DNA of 64,000 nucleotides from a virus. A program made the translations under genes and the position numbers. The notes beneath the pieces are model-generated. The model saw only the letters and a program-made list of their open reading frames with translations. It was not told the DNA's origin and searched no databases. Shown piece by piece: positions 6,057 through 15,813 of this stretch (position 1 is the stretch's first letter; each line of letters begins with the position of its first letter). The stretch lies in IMG/VR virus record IMGVR_UViG_3300018080_000171. One strand, written 5' to 3'.

Positions 6057-6147
6057 ACCCAGGTACGCTAATTAGGTAAGCGGAACGGCTGTTAACCGTT
6101 TGTAATCCGTCTTGAACGGTATGGAGGTTCGATTCCTCCCTTGGGTG
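6057..6147 (+). tRNA. class-II (long variable arm) tRNA with anticodon GTT (an Asn anticodon on a Ser/Tyr-type scaffold)
   Basis: Acceptor ACCCAGG/CTTGGGT, 3-bp D-stem CGC/GCG, anticodon stem AACGG/CCGTT with loop CTGTTAA, variable-arm hairpin CCGT-CTTGA-ACGG, T-arm GGAGG-TTCGATT-CCTCC. Confidence 0.4.
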
Positions 6148-6153
6148 TTTGAT

Positions 6154-6224
6154 TGTCCCTTGGTGTAGAGGTAGCATTACGGTTTCTGACACCGTCGGCG
6201 AGAGTTCGAATCTCTTGGGGACTG
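6154..6224 (+). tRNA. tRNA-Gln(CTG)
   Basis: Anticodon stem ACGGT/ACCGT with loop TTCTGAC, T-arm GAGAG-TTCGAAT-CTCTT. Confidence 0.5.
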
Positions 6225-6228
6225 TTTT

Positions 6229-6288
6229 GGGATAGATAACAGTGGGAGCCTGCTGCAGCAGTTACGGGTTCGATTCCCGTCTATTCCA
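6229..6288 (+). tRNA. truncated tRNA-like element (about 60 nt)
   Basis: Acceptor GGGATAG/CTATTCC and a perfect T-arm ACGGG-TTCGATT-CCCGT, but no room for both a D arm and an anticodon arm. Confidence 0.25.
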
Positions 6289-6477
6289 TTTATAACTCTA
6301 ATAAGTTATATCGTAATATGTTGCGACTTATGTCTTAATGACGCGTTTTGTCGCCTTGTATTATGAATTGTTCTTTTAAAAATTAATATGAGTATATCCA
6401 AAAATGTTAAAACCTCACTAGAGGAGACTAACACTGAATAGAGATCCTCTTGAAAGTGTAGTCCCTCTAGTTTTTAC

Positions 6478-6551
6478 AGACCTGAAGCTCAGTCTGGTTG
6501 AGCAATCCGCTGATAACGGATCGGTCGGTGGTTCGAATCCACTCAGGTCTA
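6478..6551 (+). tRNA. tRNA-Ile(GAT)
   Basis: Acceptor AGACCTG/CAGGTCT, D-arm GCTC/GAGC, anticodon stem ATCCG/CGGAT with loop CTGATAA, T-arm GGTGG-TTCGAAT-CCACT. Confidence 0.7.
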
Positions 6552-6557
6552 TTTTAA

Positions 6558-6631
6558 CGCGATATCGTCTAGTTGGTCTAGGACATCACCCTGTCACGGT
6601 GAAGACCGGGGTTCAAATCCCCGTATCGTGA
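6558..6631 (+). tRNA. tRNA-Asp(GTC)
   Basis: Anticodon stem TCACC/GGTGA with loop CTGTCAC, T-arm CGGGG-TTCAAAT-CCCCG, acceptor CGCGATA/TATCGTG. Confidence 0.65.
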
Positions 6632-6649
6632 ATTTTGAATATATATTTG

Positions 6650-6725
6650 TAAGGGTTGCCAGATTGTTGGTTATCGCTATTCGGAAGCAGTAGTGTAGGT
6701 TCGAATCCTACTCTCTCGATTTAGT
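6650..6725 (+). ncRNA. tRNA-like 3' element (T-arm plus 3' acceptor strand TCTCTCG) with the conserved 5' motif GGGTTG..AGATTGTTGGTTATCG; paralogue A
   Basis: Perfect T-arm GTAGG-TTCGAAT-CCTAC, but no upstream partner for the acceptor strand. The 5' part is conserved with the 8136 and 9561 copies. Confidence 0.3.
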
Positions 6726-6743
6726 ATTTTTTCACCGAGAGAT

Positions 6744-6790
6744 AGTGTAATGGCAGCACGCTTAAAAACTTCAACTTTCACCTTTTCATC
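6744..6790 (+). ncRNA. tRNA 5'-half-like element (acceptor CGAGAGA, D-arm GTGT-AATGGCA-GCAC, then CTTAAAAAC...)
   Basis: CGAGAGA is the exact complement of the upstream 3' strand TCTCTCG, which gives a permuted 3'-half/5'-half order. It is followed by an intron-like core. Confidence 0.3.
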
Positions 6791-6950
6791 TTTACAAATT
6801 TTTGATTATAAATAGGGATGTTGGCTTAGAAGCAGCCATCATTTAAAGAGTAGTTTGCACTTAGCGAAGAAATGACGGACGGTAACAGTCCTATCTAAGT
6901 AGCGAGGATAAATGTGGAACTTTTGGCGTAATAGCACACCTATTATTATA
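6790..6950 (+). ncRNA. possible group I intron-like catalytic core (degenerate)
   Basis: Contains TGACGGAC-GGTAAC-AGTCCTA-T-CTAAGT. This resembles the P7/P3/P9.0 core of Tetrahymena-type group I introns (GACGGAC...GUCCUAAGUC), plus several hairpins. Confidence 0.3.
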
Positions 6951-6951
6951 A

Positions 6952-7033
6952 GGCAGTATTGAGCAGTTGGTGGCTCGGGTGGCTGTAACCCACTTTCCGT
7001 AAGGACTTATAGGTTCGAATCCTATTACTGTCA
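6952..7033 (+). tRNA. tRNA-Tyr(GTA), class II
   Basis: Acceptor GGCAGTA/TACTGTC, D-arm GAGC/GCTC, anticodon stem GGTGG/CCACT with loop CTGTAAC, variable hairpin TCC-GTAA-GGA, T-arm ATAGG-TTCGAAT-CCTAT. Confidence 0.65.
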
Positions 7034-7066
7034 TTAAAGGTTTTTTCCCGCGGATAAATAATATAT

Positions 7067-13837: not shown

Positions 13838-13912
13838 GCCGGGGTAGCCCAACTGGCAAGAGGCGTTAGTTTTAGAAACTAAAGGTTGGGGGTTCAACTC
13901 CCCCTCCCGGTA
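13838..13912 (+). tRNA. type-I tRNA with anticodon TAG (a Leu CUA-reading anticodon on a short-variable-loop scaffold)
   Basis: Acceptor GCCGGGG/TCCCGGT, anticodon stem TTAGT/ACTAA with loop TTTAGAA, 5-nt variable loop, T-arm GGGGG-TTCAACT-CCCCC. Confidence 0.45.
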
Positions 13913-13978
13913 TTTAACTATTCACCAGACACTTAAAAATCGAATTTTATAGGAGTGTTAATAATAATTTGTTCAAGG

Positions 13979-14566
13979 ATGGTTATGGATTTGTTTGTAA
14001 AAAATTTAGAAGAGATAAGACAGATAGCAACTAAGTTGCATTTTATACATGGTAAACGCTATGAGGTTAATGAGCTGATCAATGCATCTTATATTTTATT
14101 CAAAAGAGCTATTACTAATAATCCTACATTGTTAGAAAAACAGTTCTCTAAACTAACTACTCTCCTTTTCAGGGTTAAATCTGATATGAAATGTTACATT
14201 AGAGATGAGACTAATTTTCGGATACAAGAAAGATTGGTAGCAAAAGGTATAGAAGTACCTATGTTTCAGAATGCTTCTTTCCAAAAAGAATACGAAGAAG
14301 ATACTATTCCTTTTGAACCTTCTAACACTGAATCTGGTTTTGAGGAATTTGAAGTAAGTGATTTTCTAGATAAACTTTTTATGGAAGTTCATTTAGAAAA
14401 TGATGAGTGGGATATAATTCAAGGTTATTTCTATGATGAAAAGGAATTAAAACAAATCGGTCAAGAGATAGGCAAGGCTGAATGTACTATTTCTACTAAA
14501 AAGAAAAAGATGTTAACAAAGATGAGGCCAACTGCACTTAAGTTAAGAGAATCTATTTTAAAATAA
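13979..14566 (+). CDS. sigma-factor-like protein (region-4-like HTH at the C-terminus)
   Basis: The C-terminal ELKQIGQEIGKAECTISTKKKKMLTKMR resembles a sigma70 region 4.2 HTH. It is preceded by a CACCAGACAC motif (about 13922). The listed ORF starts at a GTG at 13955. Confidence 0.4.
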   Translation: MVMDLFVKNLEEIRQIATKLHFIHGKRYEVNELINASYILFKRAITNNPTLLEKQFSKLTTLLFRVKSDMKCYIRDETNFRIQERLVAKGIEVPMFQNASFQKEYEEDTIPFEPSNTESGFEEFEVSDFLDKLFMEVHLENDEWDIIQGYFYDEKELKQIGQEIGKAECTISTKKKKMLTKMRPTALKLRESILK

Positions 14567-14580
14567 TGTTAAAAAAGTTG

Positions 14581-14608
14581 TTGACTTATTCTGAAAAGAT
14601 GATATAAT
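14581..14608 (+). promoter_or_regulatory. sigma70 promoter TTGACT-N16-TATAAT
   Basis: Consensus hexamers upstream of the tRNA-Glu(CTC) cluster. Confidence 0.5.
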
Positions 14609-14685
14609 AGAAAACAGATTAGAGGGTAGACCCTTTATGAGTGGTTTGGTTCAGCCTTCCACGGTAAAAAAATGGCTGAGCTGAA

Positions 14686-14758
14686 GCTCTCGTCTTCTAG
14701 TCGGGTAGGATGCGACCCTCTCAAGGTTGCGACATGGGTTCAAATCCCATCGAGAGTA
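14686..14758 (+). tRNA. tRNA-Glu(CTC)
   Basis: Homologous to the 5284 copy. Anticodon stem CGACC/GGTTG with loop CTCTCAA, canonical T-arm ATGGG-TTCAAAT-CCCAT, acceptor GCTCTCG/CGAGAGT. Confidence 0.55.
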
Positions 14759-14764
14759 TTATAA

Positions 14765-14897
14765 GTATTGAGATAGTGCTTTTTGTTCTATTGCACCGTA
14801 TCCTTCGCAGAGGCTACGAGAATAAAAGGGGAAGTAGAGTCTTGAATGCAACAAGGCGAGGGTCACAGAATACTCCGTATCTTGATACTTATTTTAT
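14765..14897 (+). ncRNA. roughly 130-nt structured spacer between tRNAs (candidate small RNA)
   Basis: GC-richer than its flanks, with multiple short hairpins. There is no ORF; the listed 65-aa ORF overlaps the tRNAs. Confidence 0.2.
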
Positions 14898-14981
14898 GCA
14901 CGCATAGTCTAATTGGATAAGGCACTGGTCTTCTAAACCAGCGGGAGTAATCCTTTCCAGGTTCGAGTCCTGGTGCGTGTG
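14898..14981 (+). tRNA. class-II tRNA with anticodon TCT (an Arg anticodon on a long-variable-arm scaffold)
   Basis: Acceptor GCACGCA/TGCGTGT, perfect anticodon stem CTGGT/ACCAG with loop CTTCTAA, variable arm about 17 nt, T-arm CCAGG-TTCGAGT-CCTGG. Confidence 0.4.
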
Positions 14982-15240
14982 TTATGAATAATTATAGAGG
15001 CATAACATATTTTAAATTTCTAGACAACCGTTTTTTTCATTGGCTGTTTAAGAAATATTTCTGTAAAAAGAATATTCACCTATTCGATGAGTGCGAATCT
15101 ATTGAATGGCACTTTTTGTCTTGCGACGCTTGTGGCTTAGAGGTTCATATCAAAAAAATAATTGAAGAGAAGGATTCCGACATAGAAGATATGGAAATAA
15201 GGAATGATATAAAAGCTCCTGAAGCTTAAATGGATGAAGC

Positions 15241-15314
15241 ACCCTTATAGTATAACAGGATAGAACAATTGCCTCCTAAGCTTTATGTCCTGGTTCGAGT
15301 CCAGGTAAGGGTAA
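15241..15314 (+). tRNA. tRNA, anticodon unresolved (candidate loop CTCCTAA, read as CCT)
   Basis: Perfect acceptor ACCCTTA/TAAGGGT and T-arm CCTGG-TTCGAGT-CCAGG. The interior stems are mismatched. Confidence 0.4.
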
Positions 15315-15436
15315 TAAAAAATATTGGATAAAAAAGAAGTGATAGTAGCTTATGTCTGTAAAAGAAGTTTCGAATCGTTATTTTTTACACCAGATGAAAG
15401 AAAAAACTATAATATTATTGTTAAGAAAGTAAAAAA

Positions 15437-15646
15437 ATGAAACACGAAATCGAAGAAGCAACAAGAGCAATCTTAAGACAATCAATCACGGCTGCTCGAA
15501 GTAAATTTAACTTAAATCGCAAAGATGCTGAAAGTTATGTTCGCAGAAATCTTGGCACTTGCGATGTCCACGATGCTTTGATGGAAGCTATTGCGGATGA
15601 CATTGCCGAACAAAAAGAGTATGAAAAAGGCATGAAAGATATATAA
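15437..15646 (+). CDS. small hypothetical protein (69 aa)
   Basis: ATG ORF lying between tRNAs. Confidence 0.4.
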   Translation: MKHEIEEATRAILRQSITAARSKFNLNRKDAESYVRRNLGTCDVHDALMEAIADDIAEQKEYEKGMKDI

Positions 15647-15729
15647 GCCCGCGTAGCTCAGTCCGGATTAGAGCAGTACGCTACGAACGTAAAGGTCAGG
15701 AGTTCAAATCTCTTCGCGGGTATTTATTG
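15647..15729 (+). tRNA. tRNA-Arg(ACG)
   Basis: Acceptor GCCCGCG/CGCGGGT, D-arm GCTC-AGTCCGGATTA-GAGC, anticodon loop CTACGAA, T-arm AGGAG-TTCAAAT-CTCTT. Confidence 0.65.
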
Positions 15730-15737
15730 CCCGAGTA

Positions 15738-15813
15738 ACGCAAATTGGCATCGCTCTGATACTCAAAGCATCAGGTTTGTGAGTTCGACTCTCACCTCGG
15801 GTACTTATTTTAA
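15738..15813 (+). tRNA. type-I tRNA with candidate anticodon CAA (a Leu UUG-reading anticodon; loop CTCAAAG)
   Basis: Acceptor GCCCGAG/CTCGGGT, T-arm GTGAG-TTCGACT-CTCAC. The anticodon stem has an A:C closing pair. Confidence 0.4.

Follow-up and report, generated by a model that had tools for sequence, protein, structure and literature searches.

We analyzed an array of transfer RNA (tRNA) genes carried by the IMG/VR virus record IMGVR_UViG_3300018080_000171, a metagenomic contig of 64 kb (ENA ERZ27256796, k141_482434; G+C 36%) whose whole stretch of 64,000 nucleotides (nt) is called the window hereafter. According to the textbook rule, a long variable arm is found in bacteria only on the tRNAs of Leu, Ser and Tyr (plus Sec). 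In the window, Asn, Cys and Arg anticodons were found on tRNAs whose variable arm is long, and two Leu anticodons on tRNAs with a short one. The tRNA genes were called with ARAGORN and with the Rfam RF00005 covariance model, at a gathering score of 29 bits. ARAGORN placed 32 tRNA genes on the plus strand between 5184 and 15804; the Rfam gathering score was passed by 30 of them, and the two programs concurred on the folds and the anticodons of the tRNAs with odd arms. The intervals of the array contain small open reading frames (ORFs), a gene for an HNH endonuclease and one for a sigma-70-like protein. All the tRNA genes and variable arms of the window described below are on the plus strand.

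The tRNA-Asn(GUU) at 6057-6147 (Rfam; 6056-6148 for ARAGORN) scored 52.2 bits, with an anticodon loop CUGUUAA. It possesses 7/5 acceptor/T stems, a D stem of 4 base pairs (bp), A1-U72, the discriminator G73 and the acceptor start ACC, together with a 22-nt variable region in which the covariance model counted 19 extra bases. This arm, UGUAAUCCGUCUUGAACGGUAU at 6101-6122, forms a CCGU/ACGG stem according to RNAfold, which can be extended by GUA/UAU in a manual reading of the sequence that no tool predicted. The tRNA-Cys(GCA) at 12377-12460 scored 56.5 bits (loop CUGCAAA), with 7/5 stems, a 3-bp D stem, a G13·A22 mismatch, U73 and the acceptor start GUU; its variable region of 16 nt (13 extra bases by the covariance model) is the arm UAACCCCGAAAGGGAU at 12420-12435, folded as a CCC/GGG stem with GAAA as its loop. 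The tRNA-Arg(UCU) at 14898-14981 scored 55.0 bits (loop CUUCUAA), with 7/5 stems, a 4-bp D stem, the D-loop AAUUGGAUA (A20), G73 and the acceptor start GCA; its 15-nt variable region (12 extra bases) is the arm CGGGAGUAAUCCUUU at 14942-14956, a 4-bp stem closed by a GUAA tetraloop. For the three tRNAs, the covariance model was matched in full (positions 1-71) and flagged no non-standard pair in any stem. The eighth acceptor "pair" drawn by ARAGORN in these tRNAs consists of a leader base and the discriminator. With 22, 16 and 15 nt and stems of 3-4 bp, the variable regions are of the class-II type (more than 10 nt, with a stem-loop); the anticodons GUU, GCA and UCU are not those of class II (Ser, Leu, Tyr, Sec). 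Each long-arm tRNA is the sole gene of the array for its own anticodon. Archaeal-type and group I introns were considered as the nature of the insertions and rejected, given the location in the variable region, the simple hairpins and the bacterial sigma-70-type gene.

The array also contains canonical class-II tRNAs: Tyr(GUA) at 6952-7033, Ser(GCU) at 7274-7358 and Ser(UGA) at 7462-7545, both Ser tRNAs with a GG(G/A) acceptor start, and the long-arm Leu(AAG) at 13148-13232 and Leu(UAA) at 13241-13324. The D-loop AAAUUGGCAGA of these two Leu tRNAs is common to the short-arm Leu tRNAs of the family. In the window, the short-arm tRNA-Leu(UAG) at 13838-13912 scored 57 bits and exhibits A73, a D stem of 3 bp, a mismatch at 13·22, the D-loop AACUGGCAAG, A15/U48 and a variable region of 5 nt. 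The short-arm tRNA-Leu(CAA) at 15729-15803/4 (A73) reached a threshold-level score of 29.2 bits. Its ARAGORN fold contains an A31·C39 mismatch, its covariance-model fold a loop of 9 nt, and the two programs set the boundary of its variable region differently, one parse giving 10 nt. An original prediction, made on the sequence alone, had proposed the three long-arm tRNAs with clean stems, the short Leu(UAG), a candidate short Leu(CAA) and the canonical Tyr, Ser and Leu(UAA) tRNAs. These calls were confirmed, the long-arm tRNAs at 52-57 bits, and Leu(AAG) was added to the canonical set; the covariance folds placed the anticodons where they had been proposed and no locus was scored as a pseudogene. 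For Leu(CAA), the call is real if weak and the proposed coordinates (15738-15813) were off by 9 nt.

Relatives of the window were reached via the sigma-like protein (13985-14566) and the RecA-like ATPase (3001-4002). Their contigs include sequences of 155 kb (NCBI SDBT01000033.1), 255 kb and 461 kb (IMGVR_UViG_3300037247_001786), and the window therefore belongs to a huge-phage family. The whole array compared with GenBank phages gave generic tRNA and ribosomal RNA (rRNA) matches only, and a large window protein gave none; single-protein and exact-DNA scans of IMG/VR found no relative, nor did an alignment of the RecA-like protein against genome contigs. Similarly, blastn against GenBank phages with the three long-arm tRNAs and with IMG/VR examples (L198, L064, L142) returned nothing useful, the sole match of the Cys tRNA being a canonical Leu tRNA of a 595-kb uncultured phage. 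A Leu(AAG) pattern drew unrelated phages with canonical tRNAs, which were used as small controls.

The arrays of the relatives are syntenic with that of the window (...Lys-Pro-Asn-Gln... and Lys-Lys-Cys-Leu-Leu-Leu-[sigma]-Glu-Arg(UCU)...), and arm length at the syntenic positions is a mosaic. The Cys tRNA is short (71-73 nt, always with U73) in L005, L006, L007, L017 and L036 and long (84 nt) in the window and in L027, whose copy is near-identical to that of the window. The Arg(UCU) tRNA is short (73-76 nt) in L003, L007, L019, L021, L022, L023 and L036 and long (86 nt) in the window, L017 and L018/L020. The Asn tRNA is short (75 nt) in L024 and long (89-93 nt) in the window, L027 and L032 (L032/L029), and Thr(UGU), short (72 nt) in the window and L027, is long (85 nt) in L007 and L032. 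At a given array position, the long form substitutes for the short one and is not an addition to it. Short Leu tRNAs (73-77 nt; UAG, UAA, AAG, CAA) are present in most relatives, at times next to a long-arm gene for the anticodon concerned: Leu(UAG) is short in L005, L006, L007, L015, L017, L019, L022 and L036 and long in L003, L018 and L021, and cleaner short orthologues of Leu(CAA) occur in L017, L023 and L036. The recurrence of the odd architectures at the same positions in diverged relatives, with compensatory changes in the stems, is beyond chance. Three other unusual tRNAs were observed in the relatives: a tRNA with a CUA anticodon (amber suppressor; L003:1408-1482), labelled "Pyl" by ARAGORN, TAG ending 15 of 60 ORFs in the window; an 83-nt initiator-like tRNA-Met (L024:17800-17882) with an insertion apparently in the 5' strand of the T stem; and an Arg(CCU) (L036:11639-11720) with an intermediate variable region of 11 nt devoid of a stem.

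We compared the bodies of the tRNAs after removal of the variable region and the anticodon loop. The stripped bodies of the odd tRNAs were nearest to tRNAs of the same anticodon, long or short, in the relatives, and never to Ser or Tyr tRNAs, nor, for the long-arm tRNAs, to Leu tRNAs. Identity marks were then read with rules drawn from E. coli work. The identity set of bacterial tRNA-Asn reportedly consists of G34 U35 U36 and G73 (Giegé et al. 1998), and the window Asn tRNA carries GUU and G73. For tRNA-Arg, identity resides in A20, C35 and U36 or G36; the window tRNA has A20 and C35, and its D-arm GUCU AAUUGGAUA AGGC (A20) and UCU anticodon are common to the long form and the short orthologues, with either G73 or A73. 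For tRNA-Cys, work of the Hou laboratory is said to point to U73, GCA and a 13·22 mismatch. The window Cys tRNA possesses U73, GCA and a 3-bp D stem with the G13·A22 mismatch, in both its long and short forms, and its T arm is that of L006. U73 and GCA have been described as determinants for cysteinyl-tRNA synthetase (CysRS; PMC5389517). The long-arm Thr tRNAs of relatives carry G1-C72 and C2-G71.

The identity set of tRNA-Leu comprises A73, A14, A15-U48 and the placement of G18G19 (PMC6614811). All the short Leu tRNAs of the family have A73, a D-loop starting with AA (A14, A15) and a final U in the variable region (U48), and their D-loop AAUUGGCAG and 13·22 mismatch are those of the long-arm Leu tRNAs of the same phages. 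Lacking the long arm of type II tRNA-Leu, the short Leu tRNAs of the window fall into type I tRNA-Leu, an already-known minor kind. As in the window, the type I tRNA-Leu of Streptomyces coelicolor and of animal mitochondria has a Leu anticodon on a body with a short variable loop (CAA in S. coelicolor) and exists alongside type II Leu tRNAs; the Streptomyces tRNA was shown experimentally to be leucylated by a single bacterial leucyl-tRNA synthetase (LeuRS; PMC6614811). Unlike the Streptomyces tRNA, the short Leu genes of the window are phage-borne and lie within a large array. Actinophage annotations already hold tRNA-Leu(UAG/CAA) of 75-76 nt, in Gordonia phage Phendrix and Mycobacterium prophage prophi86-1. 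In Aquifex, deletion of the arm chiefly lowers affinity (PMC2377443).

The reading that we favor, with reasonable though not high confidence, is that the odd tRNAs are working elongators for the amino acids specified by their anticodons, Asn, Cys, Arg and Leu, with a variable region remodelled in a huge-phage lineage. They would be charged by the host asparaginyl-tRNA synthetase (AsnRS), CysRS, arginyl-tRNA synthetase (ArgRS) and LeuRS, which are expected to read the anticodon, the discriminator or the core and not the variable arm. For Leu(UAG) and Leu(CAA), trimming of the class-II hairpin to 5 nt would have left the Leu-type D-arm and A73 in place. The alternative offered by the original prediction, that the tRNAs were rewired by the phage, comes closer to these data.

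We analyzed the conservation of the added arms among the relatives. The Arg arm has a 4-bp stem and a GNRA-type loop, and the stem is predicted in its three known variants (GGGA/UCCU, GAGA/UCUU and GUGA/UCAC), one pair varying between GC, AU and UA and another between GU and GC. The Cys arm is identical in the two genomes that carry the long form. The Asn arm of the window type was found in seven diverged phages, in which the stems of the body (acceptor, D, anticodon and T) show compensatory changes at 15 of 25 pairs; the arm itself is nearly invariant, GUA-n-y-CCGUC-U-n-GAACGGUAU (motif GUAnyCCGUCUnGAACGGUAU). Since the Asn arm is nearly invariant while the body stems covary, it is under a sequence constraint beyond folding, which suggests a specific binding partner. 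The extra arms are thus under selection. A further arm was observed on long-arm Ile(UAU) tRNAs of unrelated IMG/VR contigs, with a loop motif YAGAUUW over covarying stems (for example L136:4969-5061, L136:7531-7624, L064:7347-7440, L046:7758-7848, L083:6917-7007, L106:1804-1892 and L113:8593-8686).

To extend these observations, IMG/VR was scanned with gapped patterns made of the anticodon loop, 19-33 bases and the T loop. The Asn(GUU) pattern recovered at least 97 distinct long-arm Asn(GUU) genes in at least 95 loci; among the 97 listed, 85 have G73, 63 have U1-A72 and 31 have G1-C72. The Arg(UCU) pattern gave at least 120 matches, with at least 21 long Arg tRNAs in the listed loci; arrays selected in this way also contain long Thr, Lys, Ile(UAU), Met, Gly, Pro, Asn and Trp tRNAs, and 23 of the 59 Leu tRNAs among the matches listed are short. 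With a pattern allowing any arm length, a long arm was found for Asn(GUU) in 14 of 120 stretches (12%) among the matches listed. The remaining 106 loci contain few long class-I tRNAs (Thr 1/58, Ile 1/37, Lys 0/44), and short Leu tRNAs are still present there (21/59). Long class-I tRNAs thus co-occur in arrays, being frequent with a long Asn tRNA and rare where the locus was selected via a short one. The Rfam model upheld a sample of the IMG/VR calls at 48-65 bits. In bacterial and archaeal genomes, only 13 of the 120 pattern matches listed are long-arm Asn tRNAs. Of the 13 long-arm Asn(GUU) tRNAs of bacterial genomes, 9 belong to arrays of 10-36 tRNAs in which short Leu tRNAs are present as well. 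Wholly canonical arrays were observed in four unrelated phages, including two cultured cyanophages.

The gain of an arm is about three-fold enriched among the readers of ANN codons, the tRNAs with U36 (p = 4e-4 and 1e-5), and is specific for isoacceptors: in the loci selected via Asn, Thr(UGU) is long in 13 of 46 cases compared to 0 of 30 for Thr(CGU/GGU), and Ile(UAU) is long in 12 of 25. The loss of the arm is confined to Leu, affecting about 40% of the Leu tRNAs in the sampled arrays, and is almost never seen in Ser or Tyr tRNAs. This pattern matches what synthetases tolerate, since at least one bacterial LeuRS charges type I tRNA-Leu and arm deletion in Aquifex chiefly lowers affinity, and gains occur where the synthetases read the anticodon and the acceptor end. 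Overall, these counts suggest that remodelling of the variable arm is common in tRNA arrays of phages and mobile elements. Some of the long-arm Asn(GUU) genes of IMG/VR combine G1-C72 with a Ser-like D-arm (GGCCGAGUGGUUUAAGGC; L214:6795-6883, L166:4717-4803 and L236:5533-5622, for example), and their best matches in GenBank phages are annotated as tRNA-Ser. These genes are better candidates for a dual Ser/Asn identity than the window tRNA. An origin by anticodon mutation from class-II tRNAs (Tyr GUA to Asn GUU, or Ser GCU to Asn GUU), or between Arg UCU and Thr UGU, was considered; the body comparison did not support it for the window tRNAs, and such an origin stays plausible for part of the IMG/VR Asn genes, as well as for the Asn tRNA of L027, which has a class-II-like D-arm.

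We then considered what the altered shape could bring to the phage. Lying beside the 3' strand of the anticodon stem, it might shield the phage tRNAs from host tRNA-targeting defence enzymes or, alternatively, let some factor distinguish phage from host tRNAs. That the shape was selected for one of these two roles is an idea that we entertain only tentatively. Phage tRNA arrays have been discussed as counter-defence (PMC12803027, PMC11555353, PMC10264068), and AriB, the nuclease of PARIS, cleaves Lys(UUU), Thr(UGU) and Asn(GUU) at 40|41, adjoining the variable region (PMC12409363). The isoacceptor bias of arm gain overlaps this target set and therefore favors an arms-race reading, as does the specific partner suggested by the nearly invariant Asn arm, and the window encodes a P-loop kinase similar to polynucleotide kinase (PNK), which is also in line with a defence role. 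The known escapes consist of T5 tRNA-Lys/Thr/Asn against PARIS AriB (PMC12409363), mutations of the anticodon loop (PMC10264068) and tRNA-Tyr against the retron Eco7 (PMC11555353). The window array would resemble them in holding replacement tRNAs that differ from those of the host near the nuclease site, with overlapping isoacceptors (Asn GUU, Thr UGU and other ANN readers). The known escapes act by point substitutions in the anticodon stem-loop or by over-supply; in contrast, the window shows the gain or loss of a whole arm, for which no description as a defence escape was found in the searchable literature. A more elaborate proposal, possible in our opinion but rather doubtful, is that the arm swap acts as a shape code in a tRNA arms race. 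A hairpin would be added to the most-hit ANN readers (Asn GUU, Thr UGU, Ile UAU, Arg UCU) and stripped from Leu tRNAs, so that phage tRNAs would escape host effectors and/or be spared in a phage-directed purge of host tRNAs, the nearly invariant Asn arm serving as a sequence-specific handle for a putative protein.

Several observations weigh against cognate decoding by remodelled tRNAs or against a protective role of the arms. The similarity of the bodies to those of same-anticodon tRNAs (0.70-0.75) exceeded the background (0.68-0.71) by little once near-identical relatives were set aside, and the fold of the window Leu(CAA) is weak (29.2 bits). The long-arm Asn and Arg tRNAs carry G73, as tRNA-Ser does. 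In the manual reading, the Asn arm can be paired as a 7-bp bulged stem abutting the T stem, a geometry that might suit seryl-tRNA synthetase (SerRS). The Ser arms of the family itself follow no simple spacer rule, and arm geometry therefore gives no basis for excluding SerRS; the number of unpaired bases flanking the arm stem was given up as a SerRS test for this reason and because two pairings of the Asn arm are possible. The LeuRS of E. coli failed to charge the Streptomyces type I tRNA-Leu (PMC6614811), so that charging of the short Leu tRNAs would depend on the host LeuRS. Lys(UUU), the main target of AriB, stays short in the window family, and for the toxin MenT3 a long variable loop is the attracting feature (PMC11541572), so that an added arm could be a liability and not a shield. 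Finally, the IMG/VR counts apply to the matches listed, in which lineages were not dereplicated and lengths were parsed from ARAGORN output, with noise for a few tRNAs.

Tolerated drift is the first alternative to be weighed, and we consider it unlikely. The variable region faces the solvent, and near-neutral insertions and deletions of hairpins could accumulate in short-lived phage tRNAs and spread by recombination within and between arrays, leaving an arm devoid of function. The mosaic of long and short forms among close relatives is what such a process would leave. The Arg arms across IMG/VR are likewise generic hairpins with GNRA-like loops and no common sequence, and the compensatory changes prove only a need for folding once the arm is present. 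However, the Asn arm is far more conserved than the body of the tRNA in the seven diverged phages, and in the Ile(UAU) arms one loop motif recurs although the stems covary. Drift also fits poorly with gains that are specific for isoacceptors, as for Thr(UGU), with the enrichment in U36 and with the co-occurrence of long class-I tRNAs within arrays, frequent with a long Asn tRNA.

The original prediction had proposed that the odd tRNAs could be mis-sense tRNAs, which we judge quite improbable for the window. SerRS (or LeuRS) would read the added arm, and Asn, Cys and Arg codons would be partly mistranslated as a takeover or anti-defence device. SerRS indeed requires the long arm, its major discrimination element (PMC7373986). 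In E. coli, allo-tRNAs whose anticodons are not those of Ser are toxic and insert Ser, at Leu codons (PMC5389517), and the nematode nev-tRNAs, which also have a long arm on non-Leu/non-Ser anticodons, are misacylated with Leu (PMC3333845, PMC4300185). The G73 shared with tRNA-Ser, the pairing of the Asn arm against the T stem, and the G1-C72 pair in 31 of the 97 listed IMG/VR long-arm Asn tRNAs, some with Ser-like D-arms, go in the same direction. By contrast, the bodies and array positions in the window family are those of cognate tRNAs, and each long form is the only gene that the phage has for its anticodon. The identity of tRNA-Ser of the E. coli type is said to reside in G1-C72, G2-C71 and G73 (Normanly 1992; Asahara 1994), alongside a Ser-oriented long arm. 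The G1-G2 start of this set was absent from the odd tRNAs, in which G73 is found in Asn and Arg and U73 in Cys. All eight distinct Ser tRNAs of the family start with GG(G/A), which no odd tRNA does. For the leucylation of nev-tRNAs, A73 is a determinant; the discriminators of the window tRNAs are G, U and G, and their D-arms are not of the Leu type.

Codon use argues in the same way. Codons were counted in the 60 window ORFs of at least 100 amino acids: AGA makes up 50% of the Arg codons, and AAY and UGY make up 5.6% and 1.8% of all codons. As AGA is the commonest Arg codon of the phage, an Arg(UCU) tRNA that inserts Ser would harm the phage's own proteins. In the RecA-like family, N235, C159, C231, R210 and R236 are invariant and N75 nearly so; the window encodes them by AAT (N235), TGT (C159), TGT (C231), AGA (R210), AGG (R236) and AAC (N75), and such sites would be mistranslated as well. 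Moreover, in the allo-tRNAs (Mukai et al. 2017, PMC5389517) the 12-bp branch of acceptor and T stems is split 8/4 or 9/3, the D-arms resemble that of tRNA-Sec and the identity is mostly that of Ser, whereas the window long-arm tRNAs have ordinary 7/5 stems and cognate-type D-arms, with only a hairpin inserted. The selC* tRNA-Cys (PMC5389517), whose anticodon is GCA or UCA, shares U73, GCA and a long arm with the window Cys tRNA and differs from it in its 8/4 structure of the tRNA-Sec type, the window tRNA having 7/5 stems and the Cys-type D-arm of its short orthologues. The nev-tRNAs are Leu-type class-II bodies (PMC3333845); those of the window are cognate class-I bodies in a virus of bacteria.

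A third alternative, very improbable in our view, is that the odd tRNAs are tRNA-like RNAs working off the ribosome, as nuclease decoys or sponges, primers or regulatory RNAs. The array does hold non-standard elements (a tRNA with a 24-nt loop at 5789-5878 and an armless G3·U70 mini-tRNA at 6229-6291), and some species similar to allo-tRNAs are charged and yet unused in translation (PMC5389517). However, the anticodon loops of the odd tRNAs are canonical (7 nt, with U33), their T loops are intact, their stems are 7/5 and their identity marks cognate, and each tRNA replaces the sole gene for a heavily used codon family. That they are pseudogenes or gene-finder artefacts is scarcely credible, and for Asn, Cys, Arg(UCU) and Leu(UAG) the data largely refute it: the 29.2 bits of Leu(CAA) and the degraded tRNA-like fragments of the array that the tools left uncalled are outweighed by full-length model matches at 52-57 bits, compensatory conservation in relatives and the 48-65 bits of the IMG/VR sample.

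Other features of the array were observed apart from the odd arms. The tRNA at 5789-5878 (50.8 bits; Val(CAC) or unassigned by ARAGORN) carries its 24-nt loop within the anticodon stem. Its insert CACGTCTGGCCAGACTAT is identical at L032:13288-13378 (= L029, L030, L036), where the acceptor, D and T stems have diverged, and could be a conserved intron-like insert or part of a non-decoding tRNA-like RNA. In the 63-nt armless element at 6229-6291, a 7-bp acceptor stem is combined with the alanine-type marks G3·U70 and A73, the T arm is normal and a palindrome, CTGCTGCAGCAG, occupies the centre. The element gave a sub-threshold match to the tRNA-like domain of tmRNA and is 88% conserved at L027:13927-13993 and L032:14277-14342, with a compensatory change in the T stem. 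Further tRNA-like pieces, called neither by ARAGORN nor by Rfam, lie at about 6640-6725, 7546-7600, 7640-7735, 8116-8270, 9550-9655 and 12226-12376. Several of them have a T arm and an acceptor-like end, three contain the motif (A/G)TTGTTGGTTATCG, the piece at 7650-7730 has a CAT anticodon-like loop, and the relatives match their T-arm portions only. Weak, sub-threshold YrlA-like matches were obtained at 5831-5935 and 8136-8249. The variable region CGAGCGUAACUGCCUU of Ser(GCU) at 7274-7358 is near-identical in four diverged genomes (window, L024, L027, L029) and has no convincing stem of its own; its UGCC could pair instead with the GGCA strand of the D-arm.

Between tRNA genes, a 34-36-nt stretch at 6816-6851 (GGGATGTTGGCTTAGAAGCAGCCATCATTTAAAGAG) is 100% identical to bacterial 23S rRNA, in what we take to be helix 43, the L11/thiostrepton-binding GTPase-associated centre. 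This stretch was not found in the fetched relatives and had no Rfam match; it may represent either a captured piece of rRNA or a decoy. The genes at 22829-24136, 39409-39882, 16323-16700, 24202-25017 and 8425-8979 include those of a PARP-like ADP-ribosyltransferase with a PARP regulatory domain, LAGLIDADG and HNH homing endonucleases, the PNK-like P-loop kinase and a small HAD-like protein. The kinase and the HAD-like protein directly after the array hint at RNA repair; they were the only hits when phage-encoded synthetases and tRNA enzymes were sought in the window.

With respect to known systems, dense arrays of 20-40 tRNAs like that of the window have been described on phages, plasmids and islands as tRNA array units of mobile elements, and the available portions of these papers report no recurrent isoacceptor-specific added arms on class-I tRNAs (PMC4758250, PMC5966550, PMC12803027). 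Among open-access papers and preprints, none was found that describes added variable arms on class-I tRNAs of phages. Class-I tRNAs with 7/5 stems, an added arm, cognate marks and an isoacceptor-specific recurrence in phage arrays are thus apparently undescribed. In eukaryotes, "nov-tRNAs" with a long arm on non-Leu/non-Ser anticodons have reportedly been found (Hamashima et al. 2016).

Taken together, these results suggest that the textbook rule on long variable arms is routinely broken in the tRNA arrays of phages and mobile elements, in an isoacceptor-specific manner and under selection. As a practical matter of annotation, genes with odd arms may receive a wrong label or a lowered score from tRNA finders and isotype models. 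Should the mischarging reading be true after all, the tRNAs would represent programmed mistranslation by a virus. If instead they are cognately charged, they would reveal the architectural latitude of AsnRS, CysRS, ArgRS, LeuRS and the threonyl- and isoleucyl-tRNA synthetases (ThrRS, IleRS), and would offer natural scaffolds for tRNA engineering, with tag-carrying arms for example. They would also provide a concrete hypothesis for how phage and host tRNAs are discriminated in the conflict over tRNA-targeting immunity.

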